Notes: a model not told the origin generated them from the sequence alone. A DNA stretch of 64,000 nt from Alphaproteobacteria bacterium (GCA_965603855.1 OZ272519.1:3957833-4021832); one strand, 5' to 3'; numbered from the stretch's first letter, positions 9,640 to 46,048 are shown. Numbers and translations are program-made.

Positions 9640-11985
9640 GTGCGTATCGGCCAGTTGGCGGTCTCCGGGGGAAAAACGATCAGAACAGAAGCGGATTATT
9701 CGGTCCTCGACGCCCTGCGGGCGAACGTCGCGGTTCTGGACGCAAGCGGCCAGATCGTCGCGGTCAACGAAGGATGGCGCCGCTATGCCCGCGACAATGG
9801 ATCCCGGGACGATACTTTTGGCGTCGGTCAGAACTACCTCGACGTCTGCGATGCCGCGCCCGGAACCGTGGATGAATCCTCTGCTGTCGCCGAGGGCATC
9901 CGCAAGGTCCTGGCACGCCAGTCCGCCTCGTTCTCCACGGTCTTCGACAGCTCCTCGCCGCACCAGCATCGATGGTTTCGATGCTGCGTGACGCCTTTCG
10001 CGCTGGGCGAAGAAGACGGCGCTCTGGTGGTTCACATGGAGGTCACCGAAGAGGTGCAGGACCTCCGCGAGGCGGCCGCGCGCAAGGATTCGCAGGCAAC
10101 TTGCCTTGAGAATATCGACCAGGGGATCTCGCACGTCGATCGCGACCTCAACGTCGTCACCTATAACAAACGGTTCCTGGAGATGCTGGGCTTCCCGGCC
10201 GATCGGTTCTCGCCCGGCGATCCGTTCGAGCGGTTCGTGCGCTTCAATGCCGAGCGCGGCGAGTATGGACCGGGCGACCCGGACAAGCAGGTGGCGGAAC
10301 GCATGGCGCTGGCGCGGAAGGCCGAGCCGCACCGCTTTGAAAGGGAACGCCCCGACGGCTCGACCATCGAAATCGTCGGCCGTCCGCTGGAGACCGGCGG
10401 CTTCGTGACGACCTACACGGACATCACGCACCTCAAGCAGCAGACCCTGCGGGTCGAGGAGAACGTCGCGCTGTTGCAACGGATCACCGCGAACCTGCCG
10501 GGCGTTGTGTTCAGGCTGGTGCGCGCCGGCGAGGAACGGATCGAGGTGGCCTATTGCAGCGAAGGCATCCGCAACCTGGTGGGCCTGACGACGACCGAAG
10601 CCATGCAGGATTCCGACGCCCTGTTCAACGTCATCCACACGGAAGACCGCGAGATCTGGCGCGATGCGATGCGCCAATCGGCGGCATCCCTCGATCGGTT
10701 CGACGTGGAATTCCGTGTCCGCGATACGGCTGGCGGCCTCAAATGGGTACGCACCATCGCGCGGGCCCGCAGGGCGGCCGACGGAAGCATCGTCTGGGAC
10801 GGGATCAGCCTGGACATCTCGGACCGCAAGGCCGCAGAGATGGCGATCCTCATCAGCGAACAGCGGTTCCGCGACATCGCAGACGTGGCCTCGGACTGGA
10901 TCTGGGAAACCGACGACAAACTGCGGTTCACCTATCTATCCGACCGTTGGGCCGAGGTGACCGGTCTGGACCCGACTTGCGTGCTTGGAAAAACGCGGCG
11001 TGAACTGGGCTGGGCGGATCCCGACGACGAGAAATGGCAGCAGCATTTCGCCGACCTGGCGGCGCGCCGCCCGTTCCGGGATTTCCAGTACACGTTCCTG
11101 ACGGCGGGCGGCCGGCCGATGCACTGGTCGATCAGCGGCATCCCGATCGTCGACGAGCACGGCATCTTCCAAGGCTACCGCGGCACCGGGACCGACATCA
11201 CCGCCGTGGTCGAATCCGCGCTGGCCGAACACCGCGCGCGTGAACAGGCGGAACTGGCCAACCGGTCGAAGTCGGAGTTCCTGGCGACGATGAGCCATGA
11301 ACTGCGCACCCCGTTGAACGCGATCCTGGGCTTTTCCGAAGTCATCATGAAAGGCATATACGGCCCGGTATCGCCGGCTTCCTATGGCGACTATGCCGAA
11401 GGCATTCACGAGAGCGGCCAGCACCTGTTGAGCCTGATCAACGAAATCCTCGACCTGTCGAAGATCGAGGCTGGCAAGTTCGAACTGCACGAAGAGGAAA
11501 TCCACCTCGACGAGGTAATCGACGCTTCGGTCCAGGTCGTCCGCGACCGGATCGAGGCCGGCAAGCTGCGGCTCGACCTGGCAATCGCCCAAGGCATCCC
11601 GCCCATTCACGCAGACGGACGCGCCCTGAAACAGGTCCTGATCAACCTGTTGTCGAACGCCGTCAAATTCACGCCCGAACTGGGCCGGATTACGATCGGC
11701 GCCGATATCGTCCCGTCGGGCGACCTCAAGCTTTCGATCGCCGACACCGGCATCGGGATCGCCGAGGGCGATCTGCCGGGGATCGTCGAACCGTTCCAGC
11801 AGGTGGAGAACACCATCGCCCGGCGCCACGAGGGCACCGGCCTCGGCCTGCCGATCGTCAAGTCGCTGGTCGAACTGCACGGCGGTCGCATCGAAATCGA
11901 AAGCGTCGTCGACCGGGGCACCGTCGTCACGATGCATCTGCCCGCCTACCGGCTGGTCACCAGCCCCCAGGCCGCCAGCGGCTGA
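9640..11985 (+). CDS. Cytoplasmic multi-PAS (about four PAS) sensor histidine kinase
   Basis: 781-aa ORF with a GTG start. About four PAS-like segments are followed by the H-box NRSKSEFLATMSHELRTPLNAILGF. ATPase N/G boxes are present (LINLLSNAVKF, DTGIGI, GTGLGLPIV). No TM helix and no receiver. Confidence 0.9.
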   Translation: MRIGQLAVSGGKTIRTEADYSVLDALRANVAVLDASGQIVAVNEGWRRYARDNGSRDDTFGVGQNYLDVCDAAPGTVDESSAVAEGIRKVLARQSASFSTVFDSSSPHQHRWFRCCVTPFALGEEDGALVVHMEVTEEVQDLREAAARKDSQATCLENIDQGISHVDRDLNVVTYNKRFLEMLGFPADRFSPGDPFERFVRFNAERGEYGPGDPDKQVAERMALARKAEPHRFERERPDGSTIEIVGRPLETGGFVTTYTDITHLKQQTLRVEENVALLQRITANLPGVVFRLVRAGEERIEVAYCSEGIRNLVGLTTTEAMQDSDALFNVIHTEDREIWRDAMRQSAASLDRFDVEFRVRDTAGGLKWVRTIARARRAADGSIVWDGISLDISDRKAAEMAILISEQRFRDIADVASDWIWETDDKLRFTYLSDRWAEVTGLDPTCVLGKTRRELGWADPDDEKWQQHFADLAARRPFRDFQYTFLTAGGRPMHWSISGIPIVDEHGIFQGYRGTGTDITAVVESALAEHRAREQAELANRSKSEFLATMSHELRTPLNAILGFSEVIMKGIYGPVSPASYGDYAEGIHESGQHLLSLINEILDLSKIEAGKFELHEEEIHLDEVIDASVQVVRDRIEAGKLRLDLAIAQGIPPIHADGRALKQVLINLLSNAVKFTPELGRITIGADIVPSGDLKLSIADTGIGIAEGDLPGIVEPFQQVENTIARRHEGTGLGLPIVKSLVELHGGRIEIESVVDRGTVVTMHLPAYRLVTSPQAASG

Positions 11986-14459: not shown

Positions 14460-15806
14460 ATGTCGGAAGCCGGCGCAGATACCGAGAGGACGGACAGCGA
14501 TCTCGCCCTCACCCTCGATCGGGCCGAACAGGCGGGATTGCGCGTCCTGCTGTTGGGCAAGATGCTTGCCGTCGTCATCATTGCCGGGTGGTTCCTGGTC
14601 TCGCGCTCGTATCCGGTCACGCTTTACGCGGGCCTGCTCGCAGCCGCCGTCGCCGCGATCAGCTATTTCCAGTACCGCCTGATCGGGACCGCCGCCGACC
14701 GCTGGTGGACGCGATATGCGTTCATGACGATCGACGTGTTGCTGATCGTAGGTGCCGTCGTCTTCGGCCTGCCGGCCCGGGGCGCCGACCTCCCACCGAT
14801 CTTCGCGTTCCGGATCGACGCCTTCAATCTGGTCTATCTCGCGCCGGCCGTCGCGGCCTTGAGTTTCTCGCCGGGCCTGGTGATCTGGGCGGGCGTTGTG
14901 GGCGCGGCCGCGTGGTGGGCGGCCTTCTTCTGGGCGATCTCGGGCATGGACCCGGCGGCGATGCTGAACTGGGGCGACATTCCACAGCCGCCGACCCTGG
15001 CGGGCTACGTCGAGGTGTATCTCAGTCCGAACTTCGTCGGCTACGGCAGCCGCGCGCAGGAGACCGTCGCGTTGGTCACGGTCGCGCTGATCCTGGCATT
15101 TGCCGTCCATCGCGCGCGCGGCACGCTGCGGGCGCGGGCCGAGGCGGAACAAGCGCGCGACAGGGTCACCCAGACCTTCGGGCAGTACGTGCCCGAGGCG
15201 GTGGCAGAGGCCCTGATCGCCGACCGCGGGGTTCTGGCGCCGAGAAAACGGCAGGCCACGGTCCTGTTTCTGGACATCGAAGGCTTCACGCGGCTGTCGG
15301 AACCGCAGCCGCCGGAACGCGTGCTGGCGATGCTGAACAGCTTCTTCGAATCCGTGGCAGACGTGATCGCCCGAAACAACGGCGTGATCATCCAGTTCCT
15401 GGGAGACGCCTTGATGGCGACCTACAACGTGCCGCTGGAAGACCCGCGCCACGCCGCGAACGCGGTCCGCAGCGCGGCAGACATCGAAGCGCTGGTGGCA
15501 ACGACCTCCTTCGGGGGCGAACGCCTGCGCGTCCGCATCGGGCTGAACACGGGCGAGGTCGCCGCCGGCAGCGTGGGCGGCGGCCAGCGCCAGTCCTACA
15601 CAGTCTACGGCGATACGGTTAATCTTGCCGCACGGCTGGAAGGGATGAACAAGCAGCACGGAACGCGGGTGCTGTTGTCGCACAGCACGGCCGACGCGGC
15701 AGGCGATGCGGTGCCGCTGAAACCGGTCGGCACCGTTCCGGTCCGCGGCAAGGAGCAGCCGGTTGAGATCTTTACCCTGGACGGGCCGGTACCGCCGAGC
15801 GCCTGA
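14460..15806 (+). CDS. Class III adenylate/guanylate cyclase with N-terminal 6-TM domain
   Basis: 448-aa ORF with six hydrophobic helices in the first ~215 aa. The cyclase core follows: ATVLFLDIEGFT, FLGDALMATYN, GLNTGEVAAGSVG, YTVYGDTVNLAARLE. Confidence 0.9.
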   Translation: MSEAGADTERTDSDLALTLDRAEQAGLRVLLLGKMLAVVIIAGWFLVSRSYPVTLYAGLLAAAVAAISYFQYRLIGTAADRWWTRYAFMTIDVLLIVGAVVFGLPARGADLPPIFAFRIDAFNLVYLAPAVAALSFSPGLVIWAGVVGAAAWWAAFFWAISGMDPAAMLNWGDIPQPPTLAGYVEVYLSPNFVGYGSRAQETVALVTVALILAFAVHRARGTLRARAEAEQARDRVTQTFGQYVPEAVAEALIADRGVLAPRKRQATVLFLDIEGFTRLSEPQPPERVLAMLNSFFESVADVIARNNGVIIQFLGDALMATYNVPLEDPRHAANAVRSAADIEALVATTSFGGERLRVRIGLNTGEVAAGSVGGGQRQSYTVYGDTVNLAARLEGMNKQHGTRVLLSHSTADAAGDAVPLKPVGTVPVRGKEQPVEIFTLDGPVPPSA

Positions 15807-15859
15807 AACAAACGCAGGTCAATTACCCCGCAGCAACAGGCCTTACACTGGAAGGCGCT

Positions 15860-18742
15860 ATGGACGCCGCCGCTGACAAAGCCGAAACACTGTTGAAGGT
15901 GGTCGCCGCGCTGGCCGAGGAACTGCATCCGGGCCAGATGACAGACCGGCCGGTGACACTGGACAGCATGCTCGACCAGGACCTGGGCTTTGACAGTCTG
16001 GGACGGGTTGAACTGGTGCTGCGTGTGGAACGCACGTTCGACGTTACCGTGCCCGAACCGACCTTCGCCGCGATGGAAACGCCGCGGGACCTGCTGCAGG
16101 CGATCGTCGGCGCCCGTGGCGCGCGTGCCGCCATCGCCGCACCGGTGGTCGAAGCGGCGGGCCTGGGCGCTGCGGAGATCGCGCCGCACGAGGCCGACAC
16201 CCTGGTCGCGGTCCTGAACTGGCATGCCGCGCGCCATCCGGATCGGCCGCATCTCAGGATCTACAGCGACGAGGACGAGGGCGAAATCCTCACCTATGGC
16301 GCATTGCACAGCGAAGCGACGGCCGTCGCCAAGGGGCTCAGGCTCAGCGGCCTGCAGCCGGGCGAGGCCGTGGTCGTGATGCTGCCGACCGCGCGGGTCT
16401 ATTTTTCGACGTTTTTCGGCATCCTGCTGGCCGGCGGCGTTCCCGCGCCGATCTATCCGCCGCTCCGTCCCAGCCAGATCGAGGACCATCTCAAACGACA
16501 TGCGCGCATCGTCGAGAACTGCCGGGCCCGCCACATGGTCGTGGAGGACCAGGCCAAGCCGGTGGCGCGGCTGTTGCAGTCGCAGGTCGAGATCCTGCGT
16601 TTCGTCGCCACGCCGCAGGAACTGGCCGCCGCGGGGTCCGAGGCCGAGACCGATCTGCCGATGCGCGCGCCGCACGACACGGCGCTTCTGCAATACACAT
16701 CCGGCAGCACGGGAACGCCCAAGGGCGTCGTGCTGACCCACGCCAACCTTCTTGCCAACATCCGGTCCATGGCCCTGGCCATGAAGGTGACGTCCGAGGA
16801 CGTGTTCGTCAGCTGGCTGCCGCTGTACCACGACATGGGGCTGATCGGTGCCTGGTTGGGCAGCCTGGTCTATGCGGTCCATCTCGTGATCATGCCGCCG
16901 CTTGGTTTCCTGGCACGCCCGCAACGCTGGCTGACCGCGATCCACCGCTATCGCGGCACCCTGTCGGCGGCGCCGAACTTCGCCTACGAACTGTGCCTCA
17001 AACGAATCCCCGACGAGGCGCTTGGCGACCTGGATCTTGGGTCGTGGCGCGTCGCCTGCAACGGTGCGGAGGCGGTAAGCCCGCGAACCGTGGAACGGTT
17101 CTGCGAGCGTTTTGCGGCCTGTGGTTTCCGCCGCGAAGCGATGATGCCCGTCTACGGCCTTGCCGAATCGTCGGTGGGCGTCGCCTTTCCGCCGCTTGAC
17201 CGCGGCCCCCTGATCGACCGGATCACGCGCAAGGCGCTGATGACCGCCGGCAGGGCGGAACCGGCGGCCGAAGAAGACACCACCGCGCTGCGCTTCGTTG
17301 CCTGCGGTCGCCCGATCCCCGGCCACCAGGTCCGGGTCGTCGACGCCGCGGGCCGGGAACTGCCCGAACGCGAAGAAGGCCGGCTCCAGTTCACCGGCCC
17401 GTCGACGACGGCGGGCTATCTCAGGAATCCCGAAAAGACCCGCGAACTGTTCGACGGCGCATGGCTGGAATCCGGCGACCTGGCCTATATCGCCGGCGGC
17501 GACATCTTCATCACCGGCCGGACCAAGGACATCATCATCCACGCCGGCCGGAACATCTACCCGGAGGAACTGGAAGAGGCCGTCGGCGATCTGCCGGGCG
17601 TCCAGAAGGGCAATGTTGCCGTCTTCGGCAGCACCGATCCGGACACCGGCACGGAACGGCTGGTCGTGCTGGCCGAGACCCGCAAGCGCGCCGACAAGGA
17701 CCAGGCCGCGATCAGGAAACGCGTTAACGATCTCGCCGTCGATCTTGTCGGCACACCGCCCAACGACATTGTCCTGGCGCCGCCGCGCACGGTCCTGAAG
17801 ACTTCCAGCGGCAAGATCAGGCGTGCGGCGTGCCGCGATCTTTACGAAGGCGGTCTGATCGGCCGCAAGCGCCGTGCCCTGTGGTGGCAGGTCGTCCGGC
17901 TCGGCGCGGCCGGCCTGATGCCGCAGACCCGCCGATCGCTGCGGGCCCTGCATGGGCTGGCCTATGCGGTCTATGCCGGCATCGTCTTCGCCCTGGTCGC
18001 TTCGCCCCTATGGTTCGCCGTCGTCCTGTCGCCAGACGCCTGGCGGTGGGCAATCCTGGGGCGCGGGCTGAGAATATGGGCGTTCCTGTCGGGGATCCCC
18101 ATCGCGGTACGGGGCGTCGAGAACCTGCCGTCGCCCGCCACGCCCTGCGTGATGGTCTCCAACCACGCAAGCTATCTGGACGGGTTCGCCCTTGCCGCGA
18201 CGCTGCCCCGGCCCGCGCGTTTCGTCGCCAAGGCCGAACTGGTGGGACAGTGGCCGGCGAGGATCCCGCTCAACCGGATCGGCGCCGCCTTCATCGAACG
18301 GTTCGACAGCCGCAAGGGCGTGGAAGACGCAAAAGAGGTCGCCAAGACCGCCACCGGAGACCGCCCGCCGCTGTTCTTCGCGGAAGGGACCATCCGCCGC
18401 GAACCGGGTCTGTTGCCGTTTCACATGGGCGCGTTCGTCGCCGCAGCAGAGGCCGGTGTCCCGATCGTGCCGCTGACCATCCGCGGCACCCGCTCGATCC
18501 TGAGGCCCGACGGCTGGTTCCCGCGCAAGGGAACCGTCTCGGTCCTGATCGGCGCACCGATCGACCCGGCGACCTTCCAAGCCGAGACCGGCGGCGATCA
18601 CTGGGCCTTGGCGCTGAAATTGCGCGACGCGGCGCGCGCGGCGATCCTGCGACACTGCGGCGAGCCCGATCTCAGCCACGAGATGACGGCGGTCGCCGAC
18701 CTCGAACCGCCCGGCCCCGCTACTTCGTCTCCAGATCGGTGA
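15860..18742 (+). CDS. Fusion protein: acyl-carrier domain + fatty-acyl-AMP ligase + TM segment + PlsC-type (HX4D) acyltransferase
   Basis: 960-aa ORF. Carrier motif LGFDSLGRVEL (Ser46). Adenylation motifs LQYTSGSTGTPKGV, WLPLYHDMGLI, YGLAES, GDLAY and KTSSGKIRR. Hydrophobic helices at about aa 690-760. Acyltransferase blocks NHASYLD (His769/Asp774), FFAEGT and PIVPLTIRG. Confidence 0.9.
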   Translation: MDAAADKAETLLKVVAALAEELHPGQMTDRPVTLDSMLDQDLGFDSLGRVELVLRVERTFDVTVPEPTFAAMETPRDLLQAIVGARGARAAIAAPVVEAAGLGAAEIAPHEADTLVAVLNWHAARHPDRPHLRIYSDEDEGEILTYGALHSEATAVAKGLRLSGLQPGEAVVVMLPTARVYFSTFFGILLAGGVPAPIYPPLRPSQIEDHLKRHARIVENCRARHMVVEDQAKPVARLLQSQVEILRFVATPQELAAAGSEAETDLPMRAPHDTALLQYTSGSTGTPKGVVLTHANLLANIRSMALAMKVTSEDVFVSWLPLYHDMGLIGAWLGSLVYAVHLVIMPPLGFLARPQRWLTAIHRYRGTLSAAPNFAYELCLKRIPDEALGDLDLGSWRVACNGAEAVSPRTVERFCERFAACGFRREAMMPVYGLAESSVGVAFPPLDRGPLIDRITRKALMTAGRAEPAAEEDTTALRFVACGRPIPGHQVRVVDAAGRELPEREEGRLQFTGPSTTAGYLRNPEKTRELFDGAWLESGDLAYIAGGDIFITGRTKDIIIHAGRNIYPEELEEAVGDLPGVQKGNVAVFGSTDPDTGTERLVVLAETRKRADKDQAAIRKRVNDLAVDLVGTPPNDIVLAPPRTVLKTSSGKIRRAACRDLYEGGLIGRKRRALWWQVVRLGAAGLMPQTRRSLRALHGLAYAVYAGIVFALVASPLWFAVVLSPDAWRWAILGRGLRIWAFLSGIPIAVRGVENLPSPATPCVMVSNHASYLDGFALAATLPRPARFVAKAELVGQWPARIPLNRIGAAFIERFDSRKGVEDAKEVAKTATGDRPPLFFAEGTIRREPGLLPFHMGAFVAAAEAGVPIVPLTIRGTRSILRPDGWFPRKGTVSVLIGAPIDPATFQAETGGDHWALALKLRDAARAAILRHCGEPDLSHEMTAVADLEPPGPATSSPDR

Positions 18743-20795
18743 CGCCGTGCCAGGCAGTCCCGGGGGGATCCGCCGACAATGCCCGCGCCCGCCGGCCCAT
18801 CGCCGCGGCCGGGGGATCGGTGTCGGCAATCGCTTCGAAGCCCTGAGCCGCCTCGGCAAACCGTCCGTCCCGATAGGCCTCCAGCGCCCGCGCATAACGC
18901 GTCAGGCGTTCCATCGTCTCGGGCGCCACCCTGTCGGCCGGCCCGACAGGTTCGAACAACGTCACCGGCGCTGCGCGGCCGACGACACGCACCGTATCGA
19001 CCTCGCGCAGCAGCAGCGCACCATCGCAGGCGGCCGCCGTGGCGTCGCTGATCAGGATGTGGGTGCCATAGACCTTGTTCGCACTTTCCAGCCGCGCGGC
19101 GAGGTTCACGGCGTCGCCGATCACCGTGTAGTTCAGCCGGCGTGACGAGCCGATATTGCCCACCACCATGCGTCCGGAATTGATCCCGATACGGGTGCTG
19201 AGGTCGTTGTCGCCCAGTCGGGCCTGGCAGGCCAGCGCGGCCTCCACCGCGTGGCGCCGGTCGTCGTCATCCGCCACCGGCGCGCCGAACAGGGCCAGCA
19301 TGCCGTCGCCGTAATAGCGTTCCACATAGCCGTTGTAGGCCTCGATCACGTCGGTCATTTCGGTGAAATAGTCGTTCAACAGGGCGACCGTATCCTGCGG
19401 CGGCTTGTTCTCGGCGATCGAGGTGAACCCGGCCAGGTCCGAGAACAGCACGGTGATGTCCCGTTCCTCGCCGCCCAGCGCCGGCATCTCCCGGCTTTCG
19501 ACCAGCCGTTCCAACAGCTCGGGCGCCATGTAGTAGCCGAAGGCCTTGCGGATATGACGTTCGTCGCGGTCGATCACCGAGACCCGGAAGGCGCTGGCGG
19601 CGGCGAAGGTCAGGGCGCTGGCCAGCACCGGTTCGAACAGCGGCGGGTCGATGCCGCGGCCGAACAAGAAAACGGCGAGGCCCGACCAGACGAGACTGAC
19701 GACCAACCACGCCACCCCGGCGCCGACCGGGTGAAACCGCATCACGGCAAGGCCGCAGATCCCGGCCGCGGCCAGGACGACAAGAAACACCGCCCAGCCC
19801 GGCATCTCGCCCAGATAATCGCCGTTCAACAGGTTGCTGACCGCGGTCGCGTGCAGATAGACGCCGGGCACCGTGCCGCGCGCGACCAATTGATCGGCGC
19901 GCCGCGCCGGCAGGTTGTCGGTGCACGGCGCGGGCCAGCCTTCGCCGTCCGGCCGGGTCACCAGCCGCGCCGAGGACGGCACGCGATCCTCGGCATCCAG
20001 CACCGCTCCGAAGATCACGGTCTTTCCGGCGAAGGCGGATGTGAAGAATTCCGTGCGGTCCTGCTGTGCACAGTGCCACAGGTCGGCAAAGGAATAGGTC
20101 GGCACCGATCCCGGTGGCTGAAGATGGTTCAGAAGAAGGGCGTTGTCCTGCGCCTGGCGCAGCCCCGGCGAGATCTCGCCGGTCCTGCGGTGCCGGTTCG
20201 CCAGTTCCAGGGCGAAGGCCGGCTCGCTGACCAGTCCCCCCTCGGTTTCGCGCTGAACGAACAGCGGCACCGCGCGAACCACGCCGTCCGGATCGGTATG
20301 CAGGTTCAGCGAGCGGATGTTGATCGAATGCCCCACCGCCCAGCGCATCCGTTCGTGGGGCAGGATCGGCTCGTCGCCCAACTGCGTCGCGCCAAGCACG
20401 ATGCGCCCGTTCCTGCGTTCCTGGGACAGGATCCGCAACAGCGGCAGGTCGAAGCGCTGATCGCCCAGGAACCCCGCGGCAGAGGTGGGAAAGACGATAT
20501 CCCAGCCGATCACCGTCGGACCGGCCGCCAGAACCCGTTCCATCACGCCGGCGATCTGCGGCGCCCAGAGAACCCGCGGCACGCCCTTGAACGGCGGCGT
20601 GCGGTAGGTCAGCTCGTCGACCGCGATCACGGCGACGTCCTGCACCGCGCTTGGCCGGTCGATGCCCGCCGTGTCCCGCAGCCAGAACAGGATGTCCGTG
20701 CCCGACCGCATCACGTCGCGCGCCCAAGGCGTGCAGACACCCACGCTGAACGCGACCACGAACAAAGCAACGATCACCGCGTGGGTGCGCCGCAT
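18720..20795 (-). CDS. CHASE2-domain class III adenylate/guanylate cyclase
   Basis: 691-aa ORF. An N-terminal TM helix and a ~300-aa extracytoplasmic domain are followed by three TM helices. Cyclase core: ITVLFSDLAGFT, YYGDGMLALFG, YTVIGDAVNLAARLE. The C-terminal tail is TPR-like. The 3' end overlaps the convergent gene by 23 bp. Confidence 0.9.
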   Translation of the reverse strand: MRRTHAVIVALFVVAFSVGVCTPWARDVMRSGTDILFWLRDTAGIDRPSAVQDVAVIAVDELTYRTPPFKGVPRVLWAPQIAGVMERVLAAGPTVIGWDIVFPTSAAGFLGDQRFDLPLLRILSQERRNGRIVLGATQLGDEPILPHERMRWAVGHSINIRSLNLHTDPDGVVRAVPLFVQRETEGGLVSEPAFALELANRHRRTGEISPGLRQAQDNALLLNHLQPPGSVPTYSFADLWHCAQQDRTEFFTSAFAGKTVIFGAVLDAEDRVPSSARLVTRPDGEGWPAPCTDNLPARRADQLVARGTVPGVYLHATAVSNLLNGDYLGEMPGWAVFLVVLAAAGICGLAVMRFHPVGAGVAWLVVSLVWSGLAVFLFGRGIDPPLFEPVLASALTFAAASAFRVSVIDRDERHIRKAFGYYMAPELLERLVESREMPALGGEERDITVLFSDLAGFTSIAENKPPQDTVALLNDYFTEMTDVIEAYNGYVERYYGDGMLALFGAPVADDDDRRHAVEAALACQARLGDNDLSTRIGINSGRMVVGNIGSSRRLNYTVIGDAVNLAARLESANKVYGTHILISDATAAACDGALLLREVDTVRVVGRAAPVTLFEPVGPADRVAPETMERLTRYARALEAYRDGRFAEAAQGFEAIADTDPPAAAMGRRARALSADPPGTAWHGVTDLETK

Positions 20796-45961: not shown

Positions 45962-46048
45962 TGGTGCCCCCGGGGAGACTCGAACTCCCACTCCGTTGCC
46001 GGAAACAGATTTTGAGTCTGCCGCGTCTACCAATTCCGCCACAGGGGC
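45962..46048 (-). tRNA. tRNA-Leu (anticodon CAA)
   Basis: Folded by hand from the reverse complement GCCCCTGTGGCGGAATTGGTAGACGCGGCAGACTCAAAATCTGTTTCCGGCAACGGAGTGGGAGTTCGAGTCTCCCCGGGGGCACCA. The acceptor stem is 7 bp with one G-U pair. The D arm is GCG/CGC with a GG-containing loop. The anticodon stem GCAGA/TCTGT carries the loop CT-CAA-AA. The variable arm is long (15 nt, class II). The T arm is GGGAG-TTCGAGT-CTCCC, and the CCA end is encoded. Confidence 0.9.

Follow-up and report, generated by a model that had tools for sequence, protein, structure and literature searches.

A 64,000-nucleotide stretch of DNA from Alphaproteobacteria bacterium (GCA_965603855.1, OZ272519.1:3957833-4021832), referred to here as the window, contains the gene for a fusion enzyme of 960 residues in which an acyl carrier domain, a fatty acyl-AMP ligase (FAAL) domain, a predicted membrane anchor, and a PlsC-type acyltransferase domain follow one another in a single chain (Table 1). 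This fusion enzyme is real and intact. On balance, and judging from its sequence, we lean toward the view that it is a self-contained, membrane-anchored enzyme that puts free fatty acids into membrane lipid.

The route that we propose would begin with a phosphopantetheinyl transferase, which would convert Ser46 of the N-terminal carrier to the holo form, while the FAAL domain would adenylate a long-chain free fatty acid. The acyl group would then be taken up by the phosphopantetheine thiol on the carrier of the same protein, and not by coenzyme A (CoA), because the CoA pocket is predicted to be blocked. The loaded carrier would swing its acyl thioester to the C-terminal acyltransferase, which the two-helix element at residues 674-743 would hold on the cytoplasmic side of the inner membrane. 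There the H769/D774 dyad would move the acyl group to the hydroxyl of a lyso-glycerolipid, with a lysophospholipid or lysophosphatidic acid as the likeliest choice. In function, such an enzyme would resemble Escherichia coli Aas, with its roles in reacylation and fatty-acid salvage, but with a ligase of another lineage, the reverse domain order, and a built-in carrier.

Reading frame and domains of the fusion enzyme

The initial annotation of the window had described one uninterrupted open reading frame (ORF), and the ORF list agrees: the plus-strand frame runs unbroken from an ATG at 15860 to a stop at 18742. A Shine-Dalgarno-like GGAAGG lies 4 nt 5' of this ATG, and an in-frame stop is found farther 5'. 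The motifs quoted at the time (LQYTSGSTGTPKGV, WLPLYHDMGLI, YGLAES, KTSSGKIRR, FFAEGT, and PIVPLTIRG) can all be found in the translation.

It is important to remember that the G+C content of the window is 62-71% and that many long ORFs in it are spurious. One of these, an antisense ORF of 782 codons at 15605-17953 on the minus strand, covers most of the fusion gene. Antisense ORFs over the fusion gene also cluster across loci (clusters 1-4 and 7), because the sense gene beneath them is conserved. ORF length and cross-locus clustering alone therefore prove no gene. The sense frame can be taken as a gene beyond chance since long homologues with the same domains exist. A search of 5.8 billion proteins returned at least 8,000 candidates, all at E <= 1e-10. 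The best 120 of these all carry PF00550, PF00501, and PF01553, with 57-87% identity over 97-100% of the query. Those that have a name at all are called "AMP-binding protein," "acyl-CoA synthetase," "acyl carrier protein," or "1-acyl-sn-glycerol-3-phosphate acyltransferase," and the nearest named relatives among the matches listed are metagenome-assembled genomes (MAGs) of Kiloniellales and Rhodospirillales.

Conservation was read from an alignment of 22 homologues, again 57-87% identical, from Alpha-, Gamma-, and Deltaproteobacteria-type lineages; this alignment underlies every statement about invariant or conserved positions in this article. The invariant positions include D45-S46-L47 of the carrier, the TSGSTGxPKG motif and K652 of the ligase, and N768-H769, D774, R814, and E842-G843 of the acyltransferase. 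The same 22 sequences were used for an AlphaFold2 model (mean predicted local distance difference test, pLDDT, 74.3; predicted template modeling score, pTM, 0.55). Profile hidden Markov models place the PP-binding, AMP-binding, and Acyltransferase families in the protein, each above its Pfam gathering score.

The carrier scores 35.3 bits against a Pfam cut-off of 20.8, and when the N-terminal 110 residues are searched alone, acyl carrier protein (ACP) models are the top NCBIfam matches. The predicted phosphopantetheine site had been placed at Ser46 within LGFDSLGRVEL, and the codon position in the translation agrees. In the model, the domain forms a helical bundle (residues 2-22, 46-60, 66-71, and 75-84), the second helix of which begins at Ser46 itself; with the D-S-L triplet kept, this is the arrangement of a carrier fold.

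The next module had been described as a full adenylation domain with FAAL-like blocks, a description that Pfam, the FAAL matches, and the insertion, helix, and pocket residues discussed hereunder all bear out. PF00501 covers residues 120-521 with an E value of 1.3e-71. The top NCBIfam match of the ligase is the FAAL model PRK09192 (residues 132-664), but at 434.7 bits it falls under the curated cut-off of 600, and the ligase is therefore FAAL-like and in no curated FAAL subfamily. The top PDB sequence matches are the olefin-synthase FAAL 7r7e (E about 1e-88; also 7r7f and 7r7g), followed by 3pbk, 3kxw, and FadD32, FadD23, and FadD28. Searching the PDB with the model in Foldseek returned this same FAAL set; please note that these fold matches are dominated by the FAAL domain, and that the acyltransferase and the layout of the domains lie outside their reach. 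The core expected of an ANL enzyme is present and invariant (Y279-K288 for TSGSTGxPKG; Y432, G433, and E436 for YGxxE; R554, K556, and D557 for GRxKD; and the catalytic lysine K652), as are T648, S650, G651, R654, and R655 around the adenylation lysine.

Three features separate FAALs from acyl-CoA ligases, and each has its counterpart here. The first is an insertion, about 20 residues long, that acyl-CoA ligases lack and that FAALs carry in their N-terminal domain. Pairwise alignments over residues 444-482 give 27 gap positions in E. coli FadD and 23 in E. coli Aas, but single-residue gaps at most in 7r7e and none in the E. coli FAAL (EcFAAL, 3pbk). The second is the FAAL-specific helix: the model has a helix at residues 347-352, where E. 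coli FadD has a gap of four residues. The third is a set of bulky residues that block the CoA pocket. W319, M326, and F374, each invariant or at least 90% conserved, align with W224, M231, and F279 of EcFAAL (this numbering was checked on the 3pbk chain, where the offset is one). The helix and the pocket-blocking residues were defined in PMC8460268, in which mutagenesis shows that both exclude CoA. From the insertion, the helix, and the blocked pocket, we would therefore expect a FAAL-type domain that rejects CoA and uses a phosphopantetheinyl carrier as its acceptor.

The hydrophobic helices had been placed at residues 690-760. A hydrophobic region is indeed present, but it consists of a single strong stretch at about residues 694-728 (Kyte-Doolittle peak 2.16), kept in position in the 22 homologues and lying inside two predicted helices at 674-723 and 726-743. 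Arginine and lysine, chiefly arginine, flank the stretch on both sides, which would fit a hairpin or monotopic anchor with all domains on the cytoplasmic side.

The acyltransferase had been recognized by its NHASYLD block at 18164-18181, and both the translation and PF01553 support this. Blocks I to IV are all present (NHxSYLD, FIERF, FFAEGT, and PIVPLTIRG). In addition to the invariant residues listed in Table 1, S771 among them, F839, T844, and R847 are at least 90% conserved, and I874, R875, and G876 are invariant or nearly so. The C-terminal 291 residues alone match the NCBIfam model AGP_acyltrn with an E value of 9.1e-23, at 80.4 bits against a cut-off of 102.95. The sole PDB sequence match of the acyltransferase is Thermotoga maritima PlsC (5kym, E 2.4e-13), which aligns across the blocks. 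This alignment begins at PlsC residue 58, after 57 N-terminal residues that we take to be a two-helix membrane anchor; the two predicted helices of the fusion enzyme thus occupy the place of the PlsC N-terminal segment.

Beyond the acyltransferase, the C-terminal tail is conserved to a degree previously unremarked. A918, L921, R926, I929, L930, G934, and E935 are invariant, and R922, C933, P936, D937, and L938 are at least 90% conserved. No Pfam family matches residues 918-938, which lie partly in a predicted helix (914-933) and partly just beyond it.

Table 1. Features of the fusion gene, with nucleotide positions counted from the first letter of the window
Feature	Residues	Position	Strand	Basis
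Whole gene: carrier, FAAL, predicted membrane anchor, PlsC-type acyltransferase	1-960	15860..18742	+	ORF list, three Pfam domains, homologues
Acyl carrier (PP-binding) domain	15-82	15902..16105	+	Pfam PF00550, E 1.4e-8
Predicted phosphopantetheine site, Ser46 (D45-S46-L47)	46	15995..15997	+	D45, S46, L47 invariant in 22 homologues
FAAL domain	113-665	16196..17854	+	NCBIfam, PDB sequence and fold matches
Equivalent of the FAAL-specific helix (PLGFLAR)	347-353	16898..16918	+	Aligns with EcFAAL T252-R258
FAAL-specific insertion	about 444-482	17189..17305	+	Gaps in E. coli Aas and FadD
Adenylation lysine Lys652 of SSGKIRR, motif A10	652	17813..17815	+	Conserved
Two long predicted helices, predicted membrane anchor	674-743	17879..18088	+	Hydropathy, model
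PlsC/LPLAT-type acyltransferase domain	748-874	18101..18481	+	Pfam PF01553, E 6.5e-23
Acyltransferase block I, H769-x4-D774 catalytic dyad	769-774	18164..18181	+	N768, H769, S771, D774 invariant in 22 homologues
Acyltransferase block III, FFAEGT	839-844	18374..18391	+	F840, E842, G843 invariant
Conserved C-terminal tail (A..L....R..IL...GEPDL)	918-938	18611..18673	+	Invariant or near-invariant in 22 homologues

Weighing the proposed route

The initial annotation had suggested that the protein could activate a fatty acid, hold it on its own carrier, and transfer it to a membrane acceptor. Such a route is what the domains, the FAAL hallmarks, the invariant motifs, and the lack of a neighboring polyketide synthase (PKS), nonribosomal peptide synthetase (NRPS), or ACP gene would predict. 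Transfer in cis, the nature of the acceptor, and independence from soluble partners are parts of it that we infer, as are the membrane topology and the physiological role, be it salvage and repair or the synthesis of a specific lipid.

Gene context was studied in 81 loci by all-against-all clustering of ORFs, with Pfam applied to 68 upstream and 68 downstream genes. The homologous loci came from a scan of one genome per species, which gave at least 599 candidates; the best 80 were analyzed, and all 80 hold an essentially full-length match. Across the 81 loci, neither ORF clustering nor the Pfam assignments of the nearest genes revealed a universal neighbor, and genes for a PKS, an NRPS, a free ACP, or a reductase do not recur beside the fusion gene. 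Variable neighbors are what would be expected of a self-sufficient unit.

These results bear directly on a different division of labor, in which the carrier and FAAL domains serve as a loading module for a PKS, NRPS, or ketosynthase encoded elsewhere and the acyltransferase works independently with ordinary acyl-ACP or acyl-CoA. The holo-ACP that every characterized FAAL loads does go on to supply a biosynthetic enzyme downstream (PMC12820801, PMC11837247), and known modules (EcFAAL 3pbk, Legionella pneumophila 3kxw, 7r7e, FadD32, and HapA/NocH) have the insertion, helix, and pocket-blocking residues in common with the window protein, and the loading of a fused carrier would be a principle common to it and the FAAL-ACP modules. 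However, those modules feed a PKS, NRPS, or ketosynthase, whereas the window protein is fused to a lipid acyltransferase and has no PKS or NRPS gene beside it in the window, nor do such genes recur in the 81 loci. Furthermore, the three domains occur together in all of the best 120 matches and in 80 of the 80 loci, so that separate working is hard to explain. We regard this division of labor as very improbable.

A functional parallel to the proposed self-contained enzyme would be Aas of E. coli. Both join a PlsC-type acyltransferase to a fatty-acid-adenylating enzyme at the inner membrane, with the acyl group passed through a carrier thioester to a lysophospholipid (proposed, in the case of the window protein), and in some genomes of the family a transporter gene adjoins, as lplT adjoins aas; at the fusion gene in the window there is no adjacent lplT or other major facilitator superfamily (MFS) gene. 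The differences are equally clear. Aas uses free ACP, whereas the carrier is fused here, and the two proteins are 26% identical over the ligase and 25% over the acyltransferase. The order in Aas is the opposite one, as the initial annotation had stated: its acyltransferase is N-terminal (residues 30-139 aligned) and its adenylating part C-terminal (362-670). Membership in the Aas family was rejected for this reversal and for the scores on its NCBIfam models, which are 170 against a cut-off of 1221 for PRK08633, 140 against 1349 for PRK06814, and 27 against 886 for PRK08043. PlsC shares the core blocks I to IV, and the predicted helices ahead of them in the window protein stand where PlsC has its N-terminal membrane-anchoring segment, but PlsC is a single-domain enzyme that draws acyl-ACP or acyl-CoA from the cellular pool, and the window protein scores 33 against 501 on the E. 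coli PlsC equivalog.

The mechanism could also be the same and the acceptor a different one, such as a lyso-aminolipid of the kind on which OlsA acts, a hydroxy-fatty-acyl group, or some other specialized membrane lipid, possibly with an unusual fatty acid. OlsA, too, is a PlsC-family O-acyltransferase that acts on a lyso-lipid, and the acyltransferase region, searched alone, matches the models for lyso-ornithine lipid O-acyltransferases at E 1.3e-12 and 7.4e-11 and gives a faint match to GlsA, the model for lyso-glycine lipids. Passages of PMC8460268 describe FAALs as typically diverting fatty acids into specialized lipids, and the MFS partner that recurs in part of the family (see below) comes from a family without a known lipid substrate. 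For OlsA, however, the two scores are 47.5 and 41.5 bits where the cut-off is 300, and for GlsA the score is 15.8 where it is 260; the generic AGPAT match is stronger at 80.4. OlsA lacks any ligase or carrier fusion, no ols genes lie near the gene in the window, and olsB-like or other aminolipid genes do not recur nearby in the 81 loci. Broad distribution across phyla together with high conservation fits a common acceptor better than a specialized one. An acceptor of the specialized kind thus seems unlikely to us, and a common lyso-glycerolipid remains our preferred candidate.

The nearest studied enzyme, compared here by its published description, is ElbD of Myxococcus xanthus (MXAN_1528, UniProt Q1DC43), which likewise has a ligase, a carrier, and an AGPAT-like acyltransferase in one chain. 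ElbD is needed for alkyl ether lipids, and in vitro work has confirmed both its ligase and its carrier activity (PMC9131029); by analogy, these activities may serve as a precedent for the proposed mechanism. ElbD differs in having an additional N-terminal FAR-like reductase and an elbA-E operon, and it was purified as a soluble protein, whereas the family of the window protein has a conserved hydrophobic stretch, the predicted anchor. For the reductase, Pfam gives no match in the window protein at E <= 0.1, and the carrier already begins at residue 15. Neighbors of the elb type (HAD-like elbB, elbC, and epimerase-like elbE) are absent from the flanks in the window and do not recur in the 81 loci. 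ElbD-like homologues in other phyla are reported to lack the reductase for the most part and to be unstudied (PMC9131029), and the window protein fits this description.

One may ask whether the window protein is itself an ether-lipid enzyme of the ElbD type, with a separately encoded reductase acting on the carrier-bound fatty acid and the acyltransferase working in the ether-lipid pathway. The combination of an acyl-CoA-synthetase-like ligase, ACP, and AGPAT-like acyltransferase in ElbD and the existence of homologues free of the FAR-like domain (both PMC9131029) favor this, as do variants in which the reductase is reported on a separate ORF (bioRxiv 10.64898/2026.06.23.733905). The family also occurs in Desulfobacterota, Acidobacteriota, Myxococcota, and Entotheonella, and acidobacterial and myxobacterial members feature in papers on ether lipids (bioRxiv 10.64898/2026.06.23.733905, PMC11868695). 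Against this, Pfam gives three domains only, with the carrier and no reductase at the N-terminus, and the gene is flanked not by elbB-, elbC-, or elbE-like genes but by two nucleotide cyclases, a GH31 gene, and a PAS kinase gene. No reductase family recurs among the neighbors or in the clustering of the 81 loci, and the majority of the hosts are common Alpha-, Beta-, and Gammaproteobacteria, such as Pseudomonas, Cupriavidus, Halomonas, Marinobacter, and Methylocystis. ElbD homologues are moreover found in organisms without detected ether lipids (PMC11868695). We consider an ether-lipid role to be quite unlikely.

Several points weigh against the self-contained membrane enzyme that we favor, and these should be kept in mind. 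The structure model is of moderate confidence, as its pLDDT and pTM values indicate. The single hydrophobic stretch may in truth span the membrane; ligase and acyltransferase would then lie across the membrane from each other, and the proposed route would fail. In the window protein the carrier precedes the ligase, whereas it follows the ligase in the FAAL-ACP didomains of the review literature, and loading in cis is therefore an assumption. The acyltransferase matches only generic PlsC/AGPAT models, with the Aas and OlsA models far under cut-off, so that the acceptor is not readable from the sequence. The recurrent MFS gene (see below) is lacking in the window and in about 85% of the loci, and the MFS protein, where there is one, has no similarity to LplT by BLAST. 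Finally, acyltransferase activity of ElbD was undetected in vitro (PMC9131029).

The architecture itself is common, has already been noticed in surveys, and is close to a studied enzyme; it is less novel than the initial annotation assumed. "Fusion with lysophospholipid acyltransferases" is listed among unusual FAAL architectures in PMC8460268, and a FAAL survey also mentions the FAAL-acyltransferase fusion (PMC12820801), neither of the two giving a function. The literature searched contains survey mentions only, and no function assigned to the tri-domain form was found in it.

Neighboring genes and spread of the family

Upstream of the fusion gene in the window lies a membrane-bound class III nucleotide cyclase with a hydrophobic N-terminal half (14460-15806, plus strand). 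Downstream, a convergent class III cyclase with a CHASE2 sensor (18720-20795, minus strand) overlaps the 3' end of the fusion gene by 23 nt. Farther upstream are the GH31 hydrolase and the PAS histidine kinase (9640-11985), and the flanks also contain genes for an FGase and a 3-hydroxyisobutyrate-dehydrogenase-like protein. A scan for promoters and terminators yielded nothing informative around the fusion gene. The sole Rfam match in the window at the gathering threshold is one tRNA gene (45965-46048, minus strand), distant from the fusion gene.

This neighborhood changes between genomes. A relative with 65% identity (L082/L083) keeps the kinase and the cyclase upstream and has a polyhydroxyalkanoate synthase downstream instead, and in a Desulforhabdus locus the neighbors are unrelated to those in the window. 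A cluster of generic ABC ATPases is scattered at variable distances from the fusion gene. Lipid genes directly next door include a diacylglycerol kinase downstream in two loci, and LpxR and GpsA in one case each. Genes for 2-oxoacid dehydrogenase components lie near the homologue in a few loci, E2 in L012, L017, L040, and L041, and both E1-alpha and E1-beta in L017, L040, and L041.

The one neighbor that does recur is an Atg22-like (UMF1) MFS transporter, PF11700, with E values down to 1e-53. Its gene adjoins the fusion gene in 10 of the 81 loci (L008, L010, L013, L021, L034, L042, L046, L049, L053, and L055) and lies within 2.3 kb in 12, the other two (L022 and L033) having it about 2.2 kb away. 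The gene occurs in four arrangements, upstream or downstream and on the same or the opposite strand, in genomes of Alpha-, Beta-, and Gammaproteobacteria and Desulfobulbales, and the MFS proteins are mutually as low as 28-31% identical. Recurrence of this kind is far above chance adjacency. By analogy, it recalls the pairing of LplT and Aas, which a passage of PMC11416262 describes as a lysolipid flippase with a reacylating enzyme. We considered whether the MFS neighbor is itself an LplT homologue and rejected this, as BLAST gives no similarity to E. coli LplT (E = 1.0). Nothing relevant on bacterial UMF1/Atg22-like transporters was found in the literature searched.

The same domain order is widespread, being found in at least 80 species genomes from many phyla. 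Hosts include Alpha-, Beta-, and Gammaproteobacteria (Pseudomonas, Cupriavidus, Halomonas, Marinobacter, Photobacterium, Methylocystis, Mesorhizobium, and others), as well as Desulfobacterota, Acidobacteriota, Nitrospirota, Campylobacterota, Myxococcota, Bdellovibrionota, Methylomirabilota, Actinomycetota MAGs, and Entotheonella. In addition, at E <= 1e-30, an exhaustive HMMER search with the anchor and acyltransferase region returned 312 clusters (50% identity level), whose members are about 920-1070 residues long or are C-terminal fragments.

Two loci call for caution. A MAG labeled as the archaeon Nitrosotalea (L070, DATIWG010000050.1) contains a full-length homologue with 46% identity, which is probably a mis-binned bacterial contig and not an archaeal gene. 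A match in a Desulfobulbus MAG (L067:1436-5607) was taken up as an enlarged variant and rejected; it is spread over 4.2 kb in overlapping ORFs of different frames and appears to be a frameshift or an assembly duplication.

Implications for bacterial lipid metabolism

As a wider and decidedly tentative proposal, which we think more doubtful than the reading of the single protein, the family may represent an unrecognized but widespread route, in Gram-negative and other bacteria, from free fatty acid straight to membrane lipid that uses neither CoA nor the soluble ACP of fatty-acid synthase. It would be coupled in a subset of genomes to the Atg22-like MFS protein, which would act as a lysolipid flippase, and would form a convergent, separately assembled counterpart of LplT-Aas. 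Many "ElbD homologues" that environmental surveys count as markers of ether lipids would then have been misread.

This matters for the way in which metagenomes are scored. In PMC11868695, ElbD homologues were counted by BLAST with limits of E < 1e-30 and 30% identity or more, and from them the capacity for ether lipids and for precursors of branched glycerol dialkyl glycerol tetraethers was concluded. An abundant reductase-free family could pass these ElbD thresholds and so inflate inferences about ether lipids.

If the route proposed for the window protein is correct, many environmental Proteobacteria, Desulfobacterota, Acidobacteriota, and Nitrospirota would possess a one-protein means of fatty-acid salvage or lysolipid repair, independent of acyl-CoA and of the ACP pool of fatty-acid synthase. 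This would bear on the uptake of exogenous fatty acids and on membrane remodeling in bacteria. The window protein also offers a compact test case for the way in which a carrier placed ahead of the adenylation domain serves two active sites.

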